A stretch of 46,737 nt of DNA from a virus. Taxonomy: Duplodnaviria; Caudoviricetes. The notes under the pieces were generated by a model. It saw nothing but the letters and a program-made list of their open reading frames with translations, had not been told where the DNA came from and made no database searches. Each line of letters starts with the position of its first letter. Position 1 is the first letter of the stretch. Below are positions 8,206-21,808 of the stretch, piece by piece. Location of the stretch: positions 1 through 46,737 of the IMG/VR virus record IMGVR_UViG_3300037873_000007; one strand, 5' to 3'. The translations under genes were made by a program, and so were the position numbers.

Positions 8206-10092
8206 CTATGCGCCGGCCGCACGTTGGCGAGTGCGATCAACCGTCCCACCCTGCCCGAGCTGACCCAAGAGAGCCGTGAGGTTCTGGAGAGACGGGCCCT
8301 GCTCGGGGATCGAGGTGGGCTGCTCGACGCCCTGGCCGGGGAGACTCATACCGGGCTGGGCTTGTGCCGGGGTCTGGGCCACAGTCGCCTGCTCCTCCTG
8401 CACCTGGGCCTGGAGAGCGATCATGGCCTCATACGGGTCCATACCCTTGGCCAACATCTGGTCGAACCGGGCAATGTGGACGGGCTGCCAGGGGCCTTCG
8501 GGGTTGGCTGCGAGAGCCTGGATGGACGAGAGGAAGGCCACTAAGACGGCCTCACGCACGATCTGCTGCTGCTCGGCGTCAGCATCAGGGATGAACGGGT
8601 CGATCTGCATGAACCGGTATCGGCTCATGGTGTTCATGGCAATCCGCTGCCCACCGACGACAGGGAGCTGGTCGACATCCACACCGTTGATCGGGTATTC
8701 GACCAGGTGCTTAGAGTTGTTCCAGAGAGCGGCCGGGGAGTAGCTCACCTCGCCCTGCCATGCTCGGGTCATGATGAAGATCTTCTTCGTGGTGGGCAGG
8801 CCGGTGCCGGGGTCGTAGTCCTGGAAGTAGCCCTTGTCGATGGCGATGGCCACCTCGTTCTCGTGGCGTAGAGACTTGGCGAAGATGTCCTGGGCCTGAG
8901 CGATCGTGAAGTTGATGGCGGCCCCCATCACCTGAGCGCCCCGTCGACCAGTGCGGACATTGTCTGACTGAGACATGCCTCCGAACTCGGCAGGGAGGCC
9001 GGCGTCCTGGTGGATGTGGTGCTCGATGCGGTCCTGGAGCTGCTCGGCCCGGTAAGAAGGGTCGAGATCCTGGCGCTCGATCTTGCCACCTCTGATCTGA
9101 CCAGGCGTGCCCGAGGCCGGGTCCGGGATAGTGACGACGTCGACCTGCTCGTTGGGGTTGGAGACAGCCCACTCTCGGGCCCAGATCGAGCGGCGCTGAG
9201 CGATGACGCCCATGGCCATGAAGGCAGCCTGGGCCTGGTACATGCCAATAATGCCGTCGTACTCACCGAGGGTCTTGTCGAGATTGACTGAGCCGGGCAC
9301 GACTGCCAGTGGGTGGCAAGCGAAGTTGTCGAAGCCGCCAAGCATCTCTGCATTGGTGCCATAGGCGGCCTCGCCGTAGTAGGGGTCACCGACGACATCG
9401 GGGGCGATCAAGATGAGGCAGCAGTAGTAGGCGTCGCAGTACTCCAGGACGTCGAACATCATCTCGGAGTTGTCCTGGCCCGGGTCGTAGTTGAAGGGCT
9501 TCTTGATGCGCCCGAGCTGATCTGGGAAGCGCTTCTCCAGCCAGGCATAGGAGTGGCGCTGCACGAAGATGCAGTCGGAAGGCAAGTAGTCGTTGAACTC
9601 GATCTCAGCAGGGAAGGTCTGGAGAGGATGGCGGGCGTACCACTTGGGGTACTCCTGGCCCGTACGGGGATCGTGGAAGGGCTTGAGGACGACAGGGGTG
9701 CATCCATAGGCGAGGAGTCTCATGCCCCGCTGGATGCGATGGATGCGGAGATCGTTCTCGTAGTGCCACGAAGAGGAGATGAGACGTCGGTTGCGAGTGG
9801 CCTTCTCGGAAGTTTCCACACCGGGCCGGAGAACTGGCCAGGTGCAGACAGGGTCGGTAGAGGCGATGCGGGCCCCCATCTGCTTCATGCCCCGTTGGGC
9901 GAGGTTGGCGACCATGGGCCGCTCCGACTCGGTCAGCTCGGGGAGAGGCACGACCATGTCGTTGTTCATGACGGCCTGGATCTCCCTGATGCGCTGGAGA
10001 TCTTCCCCCTGGGCGGACCGTCGGTGCTGGTAGGTGGCCCAGATCTCGTCGGCGGTCGGCCGGCGGTAGGAGTGGTACGCAGCCAGTGTCAT
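8206..10092 (-). CDS. Portal protein, 628 aa
   Basis: Immediately follows terminase with ATGA overlap (10089-10092); portal-like size with Q/P-rich C-terminal tail. Confidence 0.8.
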   Translation of the reverse strand: MTLAAYHSYRRPTADEIWATYQHRRSAQGEDLQRIREIQAVMNNDMVVPLPELTESERPMVANLAQRGMKQMGARIASTDPVCTWPVLRPGVETSEKATRNRRLISSSWHYENDLRIHRIQRGMRLLAYGCTPVVLKPFHDPRTGQEYPKWYARHPLQTFPAEIEFNDYLPSDCIFVQRHSYAWLEKRFPDQLGRIKKPFNYDPGQDNSEMMFDVLEYCDAYYCCLILIAPDVVGDPYYGEAAYGTNAEMLGGFDNFACHPLAVVPGSVNLDKTLGEYDGIIGMYQAQAAFMAMGVIAQRRSIWAREWAVSNPNEQVDVVTIPDPASGTPGQIRGGKIERQDLDPSYRAEQLQDRIEHHIHQDAGLPAEFGGMSQSDNVRTGRRGAQVMGAAINFTIAQAQDIFAKSLRHENEVAIAIDKGYFQDYDPGTGLPTTKKIFIMTRAWQGEVSYSPAALWNNSKHLVEYPINGVDVDQLPVVGGQRIAMNTMSRYRFMQIDPFIPDADAEQQQIVREAVLVAFLSSIQALAANPEGPWQPVHIARFDQMLAKGMDPYEAMIALQAQVQEEQATVAQTPAQAQPGMSLPGQGVEQPTSIPEQGPSLQNLTALLGQLGQGGTVDRTRQRAAGA

Positions 10093-12077
10093 GCGTTCGC
10101 CGTCCTCTGATTCATCCAGCTCGGGATGTCGTTGTAGAGGGAGCCTAGTGGTTCGGCGTCGACCACAAGGTGCTGGAGATTGAACTCCATGAACCAGTTG
10201 GCCATGATGCAGTCGGTCGTGGTGACATCCGGGTAGTGGGTGAGTTCCTTGACGAGAGGCTTGCACATCGAGCGGCCCGCCATCGTGCCCGGCAGAGAGA
10301 CACGGCCGAACTTGTAGTGGTTCTTGATGGTCTCCACACCGAAGTTCTCGTCGGCCTTGTTCGACTGAGTGTTATGCGGCCGGAGCTGCACTGAGTTCTG
10401 CGAGCACCACTGGCGGAACCATGAGTACTGCATGAGGAATCGCTGAGCACCGTTCTTCTCAACAATGAGATAGTTGATCGGGAAGCCGGTCTTGCGGGCC
10501 CGTTCTTGCCAGTCAGCCAAGAGGCCCGTGTGACATGCGAGCGGCACGTTCCAGTCGAGCAGGTCAGGGCCGTCCATCCTGCCCCGGTACATGTCGATGA
10601 GATACCGCTGGCCCATGAAGCGGTCGACGCTCGGGGGCTCGACGTAGATCCACCATTGCACGGACCAGAACTTGGCCGGCGCAGGGTCGACGGTGACAAT
10701 CGAGAGCTTCGTGCCGCTGAGGCCATGAGGCACCTGACCAACAGTGCGGGCGTTGTCGTAGCAGCCGGGGAATGAGTTGCCGTGCTCATCGGTGCCACCC
10801 GTGATCCAGATGGCCGGCACAAGGACGCCCTTGGGGTCGACGTCCTGCTGCTGATAGACGACTTCGTAGTTCGAGTTCGGGCGGTCCTTCTCCGCAACCT
10901 GTTCCCGCCAGCTGAGACGCACAGGATCGAGCAGGCAACCGGAGTGCTCGGGGTCCTTGGGGTCAAAGGGTGCTGCCCGGCGTGAGTGCATCCGGGGATT
11001 CTCCTTGGCCTTGCAATACTCGTTGTAGTGCGCCTTGTAGACAATCTGGTGGTACTTGGGTCGAGACTCGGGCTCGATGTCCTTGTCCTCGCCGATGAGT
11101 TCTGTGATGTTGAAGTCGTCGTCCCAATCGTCGATGTCGATGTCTGAGACCGTGAGTTCCTTGCAGTGCTTGTAGAGATCGTTGCTACCGAGACGCTGCC
11201 CCTGGAGGAGGAGAAGGCCGTAGGGTTCGAGCCGGCGTTCGGCGACATCATGCCACCATCCTTCATCCTCTTTGACCGTGTCCTCGTTGCGGAGACGATC
11301 GAGAGAGACCAGGTCGTCCCAGATCATGATGTTGACACGGTGGGAGATGACTTCTGTGTTGCGCCCGAAGGCGGTCCAGGTGGCTTCCTTCTCACCTGAG
11401 TAGGTCTCGCCGAACTGGACGACGGTGAGCTGATCGTTGGCCCACGGGATCTGGTCGGCACGGTCAGGCCGGAGAGGCCCGTAGTCGTGGGCGAGAACAG
11501 AGTCGGCATCGAGGGCCAACCCACGGGAGAGTTCCTGCTCGTCGGCCTCCATGGGAACGGTCCGGGCGAGGGTGTTGCGGAGACGTCGGGTGTAACGCTC
11601 GGCGATGTTCTGAGTGACGGCCCCGAGCAGCCCACGGATAGCCCGATTGCGGACGGTGAGCCAGGCGGGGATGTCGTGGGTGAAGAGAGTTGTCTTGCCT
11701 GAGCCCGGTGGGCAGTTGAGAACCACGAACTCCTTGAAGGAGGTTTCGAGGAGGCGGATGGTCTCTTGGGCGGCGTTCTCCTGCCATGGAGATGAGATGC
11801 GGCCGAAGAACCGGGCCCGGAACCTAGCGAAGTCGTTGAGGCAATCGAGGGCCGTGGGGCTGAGATCCTCCCGGGGTATGGGGCCAGCGGGGATCTCCAT
11901 CCTGACCCGAGGTTTGCGGCCGGGGTTCTGGGGCTGGGCGAGGAGGCGCTGGTTCAATCGGCGGCCCGTGGCGTAGGAGACTCCGGCGGCCTTGGAGGCT
12001 TCGGTGATGTTGAGCCCACTCTGCCTGCCCCTGGCGAAGAGGGCCTCTTTCTCTGAGCTGGTTCTGGGCCTGGCCAT
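10089..12077 (-). CDS. terL: Terminase large subunit with N-terminal HTH
   Basis: Walker A CPPGSGKTT, Walker B IMIWDD, YQQ motif, RNase H-like VTVDPA and C-terminal DCIMA; N-terminal LNITEASKAAGVSYATGRRL HTH. Confidence 0.92.
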   Translation of the reverse strand: MARPRTSSEKEALFARGRQSGLNITEASKAAGVSYATGRRLNQRLLAQPQNPGRKPRVRMEIPAGPIPREDLSPTALDCLNDFARFRARFFGRISSPWQENAAQETIRLLETSFKEFVVLNCPPGSGKTTLFTHDIPAWLTVRNRAIRGLLGAVTQNIAERYTRRLRNTLARTVPMEADEQELSRGLALDADSVLAHDYGPLRPDRADQIPWANDQLTVVQFGETYSGEKEATWTAFGRNTEVISHRVNIMIWDDLVSLDRLRNEDTVKEDEGWWHDVAERRLEPYGLLLLQGQRLGSNDLYKHCKELTVSDIDIDDWDDDFNITELIGEDKDIEPESRPKYHQIVYKAHYNEYCKAKENPRMHSRRAAPFDPKDPEHSGCLLDPVRLSWREQVAEKDRPNSNYEVVYQQQDVDPKGVLVPAIWITGGTDEHGNSFPGCYDNARTVGQVPHGLSGTKLSIVTVDPAPAKFWSVQWWIYVEPPSVDRFMGQRYLIDMYRGRMDGPDLLDWNVPLACHTGLLADWQERARKTGFPINYLIVEKNGAQRFLMQYSWFRQWCSQNSVQLRPHNTQSNKADENFGVETIKNHYKFGRVSLPGTMAGRSMCKPLVKELTHYPDVTTTDCIMANWFMEFNLQHLVVDAEPLGSLYNDIPSWMNQRTANA

Positions 12078-12504
12078 GGTCGAGCGTCCTCAGCTGGTTA
12101 TGGGCTGAATTGAGCCCCGTCCGTTGGGAGCCTAACCCACCACCCCCCGCCGGCCCCCCTCCCGGCACACCCCGGGGTCACCTGAGACGAGCTGAGAGGG
12201 GCTGAGGCTGAGTGGGTGTGCGTGGCGTGCGTGCGAGGGGGTGAGATGGTGCTGAGATCACAGAGATGAACGCGAGATGAGTGAGTATGAGTGAAGATGC
12301 AGCTCGTGTGCACATGGGCGTGTGCACTAGTCACACTGTCCCTACCTGTGAGATGCACTGAGGTACCTGGGATTGTTGCGGTCCTGTTACAAGGTGAGTC
12401 AAGGCTGAGAAACCCGACATGGGTGGGGGGTGACGGGGTAGTGTGTGGGTGGACAGGGCAAGCGAGAGGCCGGGAAGAGGCCTCGGAGATCCCTGCGAGA
12501 CCAC

Positions 12505-12629
12505 GGCGATTCTTCGCCCGCTACTTGACAACCTGGCCCGAGATCACTCCCGGGAGTGAAGCGTCCCACGGTGCGTCTACCGCACTGGGCAGCCTCCTGC
12601 GAGATCGGCCAGGCCTGCTACTTGAGAAC
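12505..12629 (+). promoter_or_regulatory. Hairpin plus two boxA-like motifs (candidate antitermination signals)
   Basis: GGCGA-TTCT-TCGCC (12505-12518), then CGCTACTTGACAAC (12519-12532) and TGCTACTTGAGAAC (12616-12629). Confidence 0.5.
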
Positions 12630-12657
12630 AGAAGAGACTTTCCATCCATCCTCCGAA

Positions 12658-12776
12658 CGAAACGGGGGTGAGATGGCTAGGCGCTACCAGGCCGCTGAGA
12701 GTCATTCCCAGCACCCTGGACGCACCTGGCCGCTCCCGTCCCGTGGCACTGGTAGCCACGGCTGAACGAGATACCG
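12658..12776 (+). ncRNA. Type II hammerhead ribozyme, variant core (HH-A)
   Basis: C-GAAA 12658-12662; stem III CGGGGGT/GCTCCCG with long extension; GUC site (C12740); stem I CCGTGGC/GCCACGG; core CTGAACGA (one extra nt); loop TGGTA pairs with 3' TACCG; stem II only about 1 bp. Confidence 0.7.
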
Positions 12777-12783
12777 AGAGAGG

Positions 12784-13134
12784 ATGGACATGGCACAAGT
12801 AGCACTGCACTTCAACGGCGCTACCACGGAGATGGTGCGAGACCTGGCATCGGTCCTGAGTCGCAACGGTCACGAGGGTGAGCTACGGCTTGGCCTGGAT
12901 GGGCCCGAGCTATGGCACGGAGAGACTCCCGAGCTGGGCACACGCCAGTTCGCCCACGTCGTGGCTGAGCTGGTGAAGATCTCCCCCTCGTTCTACGGGG
13001 GAGCCAGTACGGAAGATGGCAAGACGAGCATTGCCGATGCCCTCGATGAGTGGCGGACCATGAAACGGCAAGCGAACGAGAGGGCACTAGCGGACAAGCT
13101 GGGCCCGGGAGAGGACACGATCAGTCATGGCTAG
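12784..13134 (+). CDS. First early gene, hypothetical (start 12784 or 12790)
   Basis: GAGAGGATGG start motif; coupled to the next ORF. Confidence 0.75.
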   Translation: MDMAQVALHFNGATTEMVRDLASVLSRNGHEGELRLGLDGPELWHGETPELGTRQFAHVVAELVKISPSFYGGASTEDGKTSIADALDEWRTMKRQANERALADKLGPGEDTISHG

Positions 13135-13393
13135 TGCATTCGAGGTAGTGGGAGAACTGATCTACGACCGGGAGACAGACGAACTCCTCAAGGTCAGGGT
13201 CAGTGAGCTGCGAGAGGCATTCCAGGCAAGGCAGTACCTCATGCGAGACAGGACACTGCGTCTCCTGCGAGACACCTACCTGAACGACCAGGTGCCCAGT
13301 GATGTCAGCACGTATGCGATCTACCGCACCGTGCGCAACGCTGTGATTGACCTGGCCGAGGTGAGACTGCGTCACGAGTACGGAGGCTTCTAG
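13127..13393 (+). CDS. Hypothetical early protein, 88 aa
   Basis: Overlaps upstream ORF; its TAG abuts ribozyme HH-B. Confidence 0.75.
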   Translation: MASAFEVVGELIYDRETDELLKVRVSELREAFQARQYLMRDRTLRLLRDTYLNDQVPSDVSTYAIYRTVRNAVIDLAEVRLRHEYGGF

Positions 13394-13468
13394 TCGAAAC
13401 TCCTGGTCACTGAGAGAGTGGCCGGGAGTCTGTAGGGATTGACCACCCTGCACTGATGAGACAGGTCA
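13393..13468 (+). ncRNA. Type II hammerhead ribozyme (HH-B)
   Basis: GTC-GAAA; 12-bp stem III 13400-13411/13417-13428; GUC site (C13430); stem I TGTAGGG/CCCTGCA; CTGATGA 13453-13459; GAC; pseudoknot TGACC/GGTCA. Confidence 0.95.
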
Positions 13469-13486
13469 CAGAGAGGATGGGAAGAC

Positions 13487-13906: not shown

Positions 13907-14101
13907 ATGCTCACAACCAAGTCAGGGCACGTCATCGACTGGAGATGGTCAGACTTCACAGGCCGGCGAGAGATCGTTGGGAGAGCGGCCGGGTATTCCA
14001 TCTATGCGAGTGAGCACGAAGATGGCACCTGGTCATGGAACGGGTTCTGTTACGACACCCTCGAGCATGCGAGAGAGTCAGCTCGTAAGGCTGGCTACTA
14101 G
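13907..14101 (+). CDS. Hypothetical early protein, 64 aa
   Basis: Closely spaced ORF; its TAG abuts ribozyme HH-C. Confidence 0.7.
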   Translation: MLTTKSGHVIDWRWSDFTGRREIVGRAAGYSIYASEHEDGTWSWNGFCYDTLEHARESARKAGY

Positions 14102-14178
14102 TCGAAAGTCATCCCCTGGTGTTGGGCTAGGGGGTGACTCTACGGGAGATGGCTTACCCGTACTGATGAGACAGGCCA
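14101..14178 (+). ncRNA. Type II hammerhead ribozyme (HH-C)
   Basis: GTC-GAAA; 13-bp stem III 14108-14120/14126-14138; CUC site (C14140); stem I TACGGG/CCCGTA; CTGATGA 14163-14169; GAC; pseudoknot TGGCTT/AGGCCA. Confidence 0.95.
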
Positions 14179-14199
14179 ACATCGAGAGGATGGGAAGAG

Positions 14200-15592: not shown

Positions 15593-15740
15593 GGTGAGCG
15601 AGGATGGGTGGGAGTCTCTTCTGGATCTCAGCAGGATCGGGGCAAACGGCCTCTCAGGGCCCCGTAGCCGTTCTGGGCGCTCCTACCCCCCACCCGAGGG
15701 CTCTGGAGCGCAGCACGACGCATCCTGGCCGGCGTCCTGA

Positions 15741-16114
15741 GCCCGTCCGTCCTGGTGTGCGGCCCCCATTTCGGCCCGTCCGTCCTGGAACTCACGCATC
15801 GTAGCGAGGTGGGTGGGTAGGGTGGCGCTTGGCAACGGAGCCCTTCCGTCCTGGTAAACGGAGACGTAAGGAGAAGGTTTAATGCCAGCTGAGTATTTAG
15901 TAGAGAGCGTGGGGCTGGATCGTGCCAACGATGCGATCCGAGTCGAGCAGCGAAAGGTGGAAGCGCTGGCGACTGTCCTCATCCAGAACGCTCGGGTGCT
16001 GCACAAGCAGATGCACCCCATTCTGGAGGGGGGTATGAGAACGTGCAAGCAAGTCACGTGCCGACGGGTGAGAGAGGTGTTGGGTCAGAGCTAGCCCGTC
16101 CGTCCTGGTAAACG
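15741..16114 (+). repeat. Iteron/operator-like direct repeats GCCC(G/T)TCCGTCCTGG x4
   Basis: Copies at 15741, 15774, 15840 and 16094; the last two extend with TAAACG. Confidence 0.85.
15882..16094 (+). CDS. Hypothetical protein, 70 aa
   Basis: AAGGAG upstream; C-terminal H..C....C residues; sits between repeats 3 and 4. Confidence 0.55.
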   Translation: MPAEYLVESVGLDRANDAIRVEQRKVEALATVLIQNARVLHKQMHPILEGGMRTCKQVTCRRVREVLGQS

Positions 16115-19704: not shown

Positions 19705-19713
19705 GGAGGTGAG

Positions 19714-21718: not shown

Positions 21719-21791
21719 GGGCCGGTAGTCCAGGTGGCTGGGCACTCCTTTATAGAGGGGATGGGTGCGGGTTCGACTCCCGTCCGGTCCA
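21719..21791 (+). tRNA. tRNA or tRNA-like gene with atypical anticodon arm (nominal anticodon ATA)
   Basis: Acceptor GGGCCGG/CCGGTCC; D arm GTCC/GGGC; T arm GCGGG-TTCGACT-CCCGT; 73 nt; anticodon arm ambiguous. Confidence 0.75.
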
Positions 21792-21808
21792 CAGAGAGAT
21801 GAGAGAGG

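Follow-up and report, generated by a model that had tools for sequence, protein, structure and literature searches.

Can a self-cleaving ribozyme in a phage leader decide when the gene behind it is translated? This question is raised by a variant hammerhead, HH-A, in a stretch of viral DNA of 46,737 nucleotides (the window), which is a complete 46,737-base virus genome with direct terminal repeats. The original prediction held that HH-A is a two-state switch: its ribozyme fold would hide the ribosome-binding site (RBS) of gene 1, the first early gene, and an alternative fold would leave that site free. The features that bear on the answer are collected in Table 1.

The recognised gene products of the phage are a terminase, a major head protein, a helicase and an exonuclease with a Cas4 domain. 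Among cultured phages, the terminase finds its nearest matches in 29 Streptomyces phage records, with which a part of it aligns at about 25% identity (one of these matches is filed under Beephvirinae), and several of its nine genome-bin matches are actinobacterial. Given these two sets of matches, the uncultured 46.7-kb phage is probably an actinophage. A DNA search returned no close relative among cultured phages; a further one, which gave at least 117 stretches, left one weak candidate after filtering, and scans with the capsid and with a 408-aa protein found no relative. No sequencing run with RNA was listed, and the one DNA run found, a possible source of the window, showed no variant.

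The HH-A leader lies about 600 bases from the terminase start and heads the opposite arm. Gene 1 is likely the first early gene, where “early” is read from the layout of the arms; its product had no PHROG, no Pfam and no strong atlas match. A promoter scan returned 0 sites. Just 3' of the TTGACA motif lies a perfect 16-bp palindrome (12544-12559), a possible operator that was not seen in L372, the relative described below, and one 8-mer occurs at 12520-12527 and again at 12617-12624, both copies complementing the gene 1 start. Elsewhere in the genome, a C-rich motif near the terminase start (12154-12173), kept in L372 and more loosely in a second relative, L119, is a possible genome-end or packaging signal. 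A gene-poor part of the early arm (15740-16114) carries four copies of a 22-nt repeat (family D2). The sole tRNA gene (21719-21792), which directly precedes an RBS, was called tRNA-Tyr with anticodon ATA; the usual tRNA-Tyr anticodon is GTA.

Table 1. Features of the gene 1 leader and its surroundings in the window; pairings and cleavage site are predicted.
Feature	Position	Strand	Remarks
Terminase large subunit	10089..12077	-	PHROG 38, E 1.8e-25; starts the structural arm, divergent from the leader
13-nt motif with TTGACA (12525-30)	12519..12531	+	candidate promoter -35, no consensus -10
Outer-helix 5' arm	12616..12624	+	9 bp with 12796-12804 (gene 1 start); mean P 0.93
Anti-SD strand	12642..12653	+	pairs with RBS and start (ribozyme fold) or with decoy (nascent fold)
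C11.1 and GAAA of catalytic core (G12, A13, A14, A15.1)	12658..12662	+	structural scan; GAAA at 12659-62
Stem III	12662..12739	+	8-bp base 12662-69/12732-39 and irregular arm of about 60 nt
Decoy	12664..12675	+	SD-like, AUG-containing 5' strand of stem III; captures anti-SD in nascent RNA
30-codon ORF inside ribozyme	12673..12765	+	stop is the UGA of the core; no Pfam match
GUC triplet	12738..12740	+	cleavage predicted 3' of C12740, from hammerhead consensus
Stem I (7 bp, 12741-47/12755-61) and loop I (12748-54)	12741..12761	+	fold probabilities
Core CUGAACGA (12762-69; A6a-type insertion) and G10.1	12762..12770	+	structural scan
3' tail pairing with loop I	12772..12776	+	5-bp pseudoknot with 12750-54, by complementarity
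Phage RBS motif and gene 1 start	12776..12793	+	masked by anti-SD
Gene 1, 114 aa	12790..13134	+	opens the arm leading to helicase and Cas4-like exonuclease
HH-B, canonical type II hammerhead	13392..13470	+	RF02276 35.8 bits (gathering 37); without anti-SD clamp
HH-C, canonical-core type II hammerhead	14100..14180	+	RF02276 33.6 bits; without anti-SD clamp

A structural scan placed three type II hammerheads on the + strand, at 12659 (HH-A), 13396 and 14104. HH-A follows the type II order (GAAA, stem III, UH, stem I, CUGA..GA, with stem II open), has its core-adjacent pairs (10.1-11.1, G12770:C12658; 1.1-2.1, C12741:G12761; 15.1-16.1, A12662:U12739) and carries an H at position 17 (C12740). The exact consensus core CUGANGA is replaced by one with an extra base, CUGAACGA. 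Since this base matches the described natural A6a variant, we file HH-A as a variant and not as a consensus member. The variant core, the stem II of about 1 bp (C12658:G12770) and the extension of stem III by about 60 nt, which had been announced from the sequence, were all seen; the loop I/3'-tail pseudoknot (12750-54/12772-76) and the outer helix (12616-24/12796-804) had not been part of that description. The stem III arm has a z-score of -3.6, with equally stable shuffles in 1 of 300 cases, and stem I has P 0.83-1.0 in the full-length fold and in all prefixes from 12760 on. The pseudoknot is offset by 2 nt after A9, as in 2 of 113 cases with a pseudoknot of at least 4 bp. HH-A had no RF02276 match at E up to 10, nor a match to a custom covariance model (a poor one, with 5 pairs only); the long stem III may explain both misses. 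A type III register for HH-A itself was considered and rejected, since GAGA would have to stand in for GAAA and position 17 would be a G. In both modelled folds the 30-codon ORF inside the ribozyme has its SD-like site paired; it is therefore probably not translated and unlikely to act as a regulatory uORF.

What sets HH-A apart is the pairing of its flanks. The complements 12645-53/12780-88 and 12642-44/12791-93 are perfect, exactly as first noted, and lie within the dominant fold, where the helix covers the SD, the AUG at 12784-86 and the UG of the AUG at 12790-92; the claim that it hides the RBS and both starts is thus borne out by the folding. Of these starts, 12790 is probably that of gene 1, because the candidate at 12784 sits within the phage's own RBS motif, GAGGATGG, which has 21 copies on the + strand, many of them just 5' of ORFs. 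The masking pairs belong to the minimum-energy fold of 12642-12793 (-72.9 kcal/mol, z -4.6, 0 of 200 shuffles) and have P 0.95-1.0 in five sequence contexts at two temperatures; all folding energies given here leave out pseudoknots and Mg2+. Among the 35 RBS-like sites of the genome, some of them probably not real starts, that of HH-A has the longest perfect upstream complement. The anti-SD and the SD flank the predicted cleavage site, and by the models the SD is closed off before cleavage and accessible in the free 3' product: opening the RBS at 37 C is predicted to cost 14.1-17.5 kcal/mol in the precursor versus 3.7-5.1 kcal/mol in the free 3' product (10.8 versus 2.3 kcal/mol with a narrower region). 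By these models the anti-SD/SD helix is real and unusual; together with the masking of the same site in the relative L372 (see below), it suggests that cutting and translation may be coupled.

To place HH-A among its kind we used 148 rows of type II hammerheads, which came from pattern scans (among the matches listed) and a few loci; 134 of them had enough flank and a detectable SD and start. Among the matches listed, the longest perfect upstream complement of the 148 is that of HH-A, and its release gain (how much more accessible cleavage is predicted to make the RBS) of 8.5 kcal/mol is the first of the 134 phage type II hammerheads, whose median is 0.4 and 95th percentile 4.8 kcal/mol; HH-B and HH-C gain 0.9 and 1.9 kcal/mol. 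A stem III spanning more than 50 nt was found in 3 of the 148 rows, among the matches listed. An A6a-type insertion with U7, not C, occurs in otherwise intact type II hammerheads at 7 of 120 viral loci. A link between this insertion and RBS masking was rejected, since the 5 other scored A6a-type rows gain -1.3 to 0.5 kcal/mol. A scan for type III hammerheads whose stem III carries a GGAG-type SD gave three matches, and on inspection none was of this kind.

The survey also brought up hammerhead-like motifs in other phages. In Streptomyces phage Salutena (L515, MT708548; 500-3020), unannotated type II hammerhead-like motifs, read by eye, lie 5' of several small genes, some of them with an extra base after the core. 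Pseudomonas phage MP42 (L516, JQ762257) has an intergenic type II hammerhead at 570-645, to which weak matches in many related Pseudomonas phages are similar. At L513 (805-870, minus strand), a type II-like motif with GGAA for GAAA stands, by eye, directly 5' of an SD and start.

An ordinary role for HH-A would be to trim the early transcript, just as HH-B and HH-C would, with the RBS complement as an incidental feature. Its position would fit: among the matches listed, an SD and a start follow within 50 nt in 130 of the 148 type II rows. Perfect inverted repeats can also arise somewhere in such a region, with at least 9 bp in 38 of 1,000 shuffles. However, the complement in HH-A hits the RBS exactly and is nested with helices of 3 and 9 bp, its masking ranks first of 134 among the matches listed, and it is kept in a relative in which the intervening sequence is not. 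We therefore consider mere trimming very unlikely.

That relative comes from a search with the terminase, homologues of which exist as proteins at 58-70% identity. We aligned 22 of the 120 listed homologues and used the alignment to fetch 51, 80 and 9 loci. The closest with upstream DNA is L372, whose terminase is 69% identical. L372 and the window have in common, at matching distances, the terminal motif, the 13-nt TTGACA-containing motif (identical, about 110-120 nt upstream of the anti-SD) and the anti-SD, 10 nt of which are identical; the RBS is also kept, whereas the interval between anti-SD and SD is not conserved. In L372 the anti-SD is the 5' strand and the SD the 3' strand of stem III of a canonical type III hammerhead, which is predicted to cut directly after the anti-SD. 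Its release gain is 9.1 kcal/mol and its predicted product Kd 4e-8 to 8e-3 M at 37 C. No counterpart of the 9-bp outer helix was seen there, the long stem III extension is absent, and homology between the two gene 1 products is not detectable (E 0.14). An 8-nt stretch of gene 1 in L372 perfectly complements the 5' strand of stem I (about 355-362/437-444, minus strand); this pairing has P 0.00 in the precursor and forms in the free 3' product, in longer contexts.

A ribozyme at this leader position was found in 1 of 143 related loci, namely L372. L391 and L430 have canonical type II matches at other positions, and L447 and L439 have doubtful ones; RF02276 matched 0 of 5 related records. At 49-52% identity, L119, L375 and L377 have no hammerhead by our scans, and L375 and L377 no Rfam ribozyme match at E up to 1. 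Their first-gene leaders fold into long hairpins of high stability (z -3.9 to -5.3), at the base of which the flank pairs with the leader's own, different RBS. Gene finding in these loci was crude: the motif-based scan gave 0 genes in L119 and 1 in L375, and the first-gene scan was noisy. Long irregular hairpins, often with CTAG, stand 5' of several early genes in all three early arms. RNase III processes hairpins in phage early regions, and those processing hairpins resemble the ones in L119, L375 and L377, which are candidate protein-cut processing sites where the present phage has hammerheads. When the 40-nt flanks were shuffled, the observed masking was matched in 4 of 60 cases for HH-A, 4 of 60 for L372, 51 of 60 for L119, 1 of 60 for L375 and 3 of 60 for L377. 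This sample comprises the five closest loci with a recognisable leader, to the exclusion of L378, L420 and more distant ones, and its support for predicted masking is modest.

Does HH-A have a second state? The original prediction saw one in the pairing of 12642-55 with 12663-76. This 5' hairpin is predicted to form, since the 5' strand of stem III looks like an SD with AUG (the decoy is also similar to the gene starts at 19705 and 19932); it traps GAAA and competes with stem III, as proposed. Its pairing is not perfect: in straight register there are 3 mismatches, and the hairpin forms with 13 bp interrupted by two bulges, at -17.0 kcal/mol. Nor is it an equilibrium alternative, because in full-length RNA the free ensemble lies 9-12 kcal/mol below the 5'-hairpin fold and 19-22 kcal/mol below the complete alternative with its second helix. 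These gaps rule out equilibrium bistability, and the comparison of competing folds that had been suggested as a check thus went against a balanced pair; two folds of nearly equal energy, as expected of a riboswitch, were not found in full-length RNA. Rfam gave no match to a sensor or aptamer domain in the region of the stem III extension. The second helix, 12683-90/12749-56, was to break stem I. Despite perfect complementarity it has P 0.00 in full-length folds and in every sufficient prefix, and as an inverted repeat it is at chance level, since 142 of 1,000 shuffles of the region contain a perfect one of at least 8 bp.

The second state appears when the RNA is folded as it is made. The 5' hairpin has P of about 1.0 in nearly all prefixes ending at 12670-12784 (minimum 0.51, at 12754) and yields only once the SD is transcribed; it is also dominant in the free 5' product and when the ribosome footprint is kept open. 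With the footprint open, stem III has P 0.002-0.017, and the ribozyme fold and RBS access are, as predicted, mutually exclusive. Stem III has P 0.04 when the 5' strand is present and the SD is not, 0.88 when the 5' strand is left out, and about 0.9 when both are there. What stands of the two-state switch is therefore an alternative state in nascent or ribosome-bound RNA; its balance with the ribozyme fold does not stand, and L372 keeps the masking without any decoy or alternative state. In these models the two states are ordered in time or by ribosome occupancy, not balanced. The nascent open state is probably short-lived, because the barrier to leaving the 5' hairpin is low from the nascent fold (5.4-6.5 kcal/mol; 10.7-12.5 from the relaxed fold), and its lifetime is uncertain.

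One reading, the closest to the original prediction, is a pulse followed by shut-off. The decoy fold would then be the ON state: ribosomes loading during transcription would keep the ribozyme unfolded, untranslated messages would close and cleave, and after cleavage the products would stay paired, with gene 1 OFF or decaying, such that the ribozyme senses ribosome occupancy. The persistence of the decoy pairing up to 12784 and the loss of stem III under the footprint are consistent with this, and a similar decoy exists in L119, 3.5 kcal/mol above the masked fold. The cleaved products of HH-A are moreover predicted to remain bound, at -13.8 to -16.6 kcal/mol, or a Kd of 2e-10 to 2e-12 M (37 C, before any help from nucleases or ribosomes). 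With such exit barriers, however, the time window may be too short, and L372 lacks the decoy state and the second helix never forms. We consider a pulse followed by shut-off unlikely.

The core raises a different doubt: HH-A may be a relic with next to no activity, perhaps left by the duplication of a type III unit, and its anti-SD a plain repressive helix that would lower gene 1 output irrespective of the core. The insertion after A6 (A6a) is a natural low-activity variant, and shortening the pseudoknot costs about 20-fold at 4 bp, within a range of about 20- to more than 100-fold (PMC3088659). Stem II, 1 bp in HH-A, has at least 3 bp in 140 of the 148 rows (among the matches listed), and neither Rfam nor our custom model scored HH-A. 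Its 3' end (GAGA-SD) aligns with the L372 unit (GAAA-SD), which suggests, speculatively and with weak statistics, an origin by duplication and permutation of a type III unit; the alignment was equalled in 8 of 500 shuffles per half and is driven by the RBS and anti-SD motifs. The A6a insertion and the mismatched stem II could thus reflect decay rather than tuning. On the other hand, stem I, stem III, GUC, GAAA and pseudoknot are all intact, the insertion recurs in seven otherwise intact phage hammerheads, and a natural ribozyme with a 1-bp stem II and a 6-bp pseudoknot cleaves at more than 1.2 per min (PMC3088659). A relic therefore seems rather improbable to us. As the extra core base and the 1-bp stem II are both known natural variants, HH-A is, by analogy, a variant of a known hammerhead class, and probably a slow one.

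The reading we prefer, with a probability of roughly one half, is that gene 1 has a cleavage-coupled translational gate, of which HH-A, as a slow type II hammerhead, is a part. It is favoured by the dominant masked fold, the top release gain, the conservation in L372 and the flank pairing in L119, L375 and L377. In the computed part of this mechanism, the nascent leader would first park its anti-SD on the decoy within stem III, with the ribozyme unfolded; a transcribed SD free of ribosomes would strip the anti-SD from the decoy, upon which stem III would close and the RBS be hidden, and a bound ribosome would keep the ribozyme unfolded. Slow cleavage after C12740 would then leave anti-SD and SD on separate molecules. 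The RBS would become free once the 5' piece is lost, a step in which nucleases or the 30S subunit would probably assist, as would the return of this piece to its pairing with the decoy. The net effect would be to delay or damp gene 1 synthesis until cleavage lifts the gate. The parting of the products is the weak step, since their complex is predicted to be strong in HH-A and much weaker in L372, and release would need help. It also counts against this reading that a single one of the 143 loci has a ribozyme at this position and that the decoy state is missing there.

How much of this is known from other ribozymes? Clustered type II hammerheads with a loop I/3'-tail pseudoknot were described in phage and prophage operons by Perreault et al. 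in 2011 (PMC3088659). HH-A shares with them (RF02276) the topology, the GUC site, the pseudoknot and the clustering before small genes; it differs in combining A6a with a 1-bp stem II, in the 76-nt stem III arm and in the anti-SD helix and decoy. In haloviruses HF1 and HF2 the HHphage precedes the first ORF of an early polycistronic transcript by 13 nt, and regulated cleavage with salt as the signal was proposed for it (PMC3088659). It resembles HH-A in its variant core and its place ahead of the first early gene, but has another insertion and an archaeal host, and the passages on it describe no RBS masking. The words “ribosome binding” and “translation” are absent from the main text of that paper, and the HH-A core strings from the text of its supplement, whose alignments, figures and Dataset S1 may contain them. 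The A6a insertion, the 1-bp stem II and a variant hammerhead before the first early gene are thus already known (PMC3088659), and to that extent the view that HH-A has no described equivalent fails. For the masking it may hold: titles and abstract openings, with subscription papers mostly outside this scope, yielded no description of a natural hammerhead that masks an SD.

The nearest parallels are artificial. In engineered hammerhead and twister switches, SD and anti-SD form a closing helix (Wieland and Hartig 2008, cited in PMC5052635), and cleavage of SD-masking ribozymes raises expression, 5- to about 100-fold for twister (PMC5052635). Cleavage in these switches parts SD and anti-SD, a layout that L372 has directly. 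HH-A differs from them in being natural, with no aptamer seen, a masking helix outside the core stems and much tighter predicted product binding. Among bacterial self-cleaving ribozymes, a 2019 review counts glmS as the only well-understood case (PMC6765202). Like HH-A, it is a self-cleaving 5' UTR ribozyme ahead of a gene, which glmS controls; unlike HH-A, it has a different fold and a cofactor and acts through decay (PMC6765202).

A wider reading, which we put forward tentatively and consider rather doubtful, is that in this phage family an anti-SD clamp around an interchangeable cutter gates the first early gene, HH-A being a ribosome-sensing form and maybe a permuted type III duplicate. 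The cutters, proposed just as tentatively, would be the type III hammerhead of L372, the type II hammerhead of the window and protein-cut hairpins in L119, L375 and L377. If this is true, HH-A would sense ribosomes in nature, as a ribozyme that takes up its fold only while no ribosome occupies its SD. The leader is a candidate natural counterpart of the engineered SD-masking switches, present at one locus in two hammerhead permutations, and its folds lead to an unusual prediction: the ribozyme would be activated by the SD. For most self-cleaving ribozymes of bacteria and phages little is understood of what they do, and this leader offers a candidate for a regulatory role.
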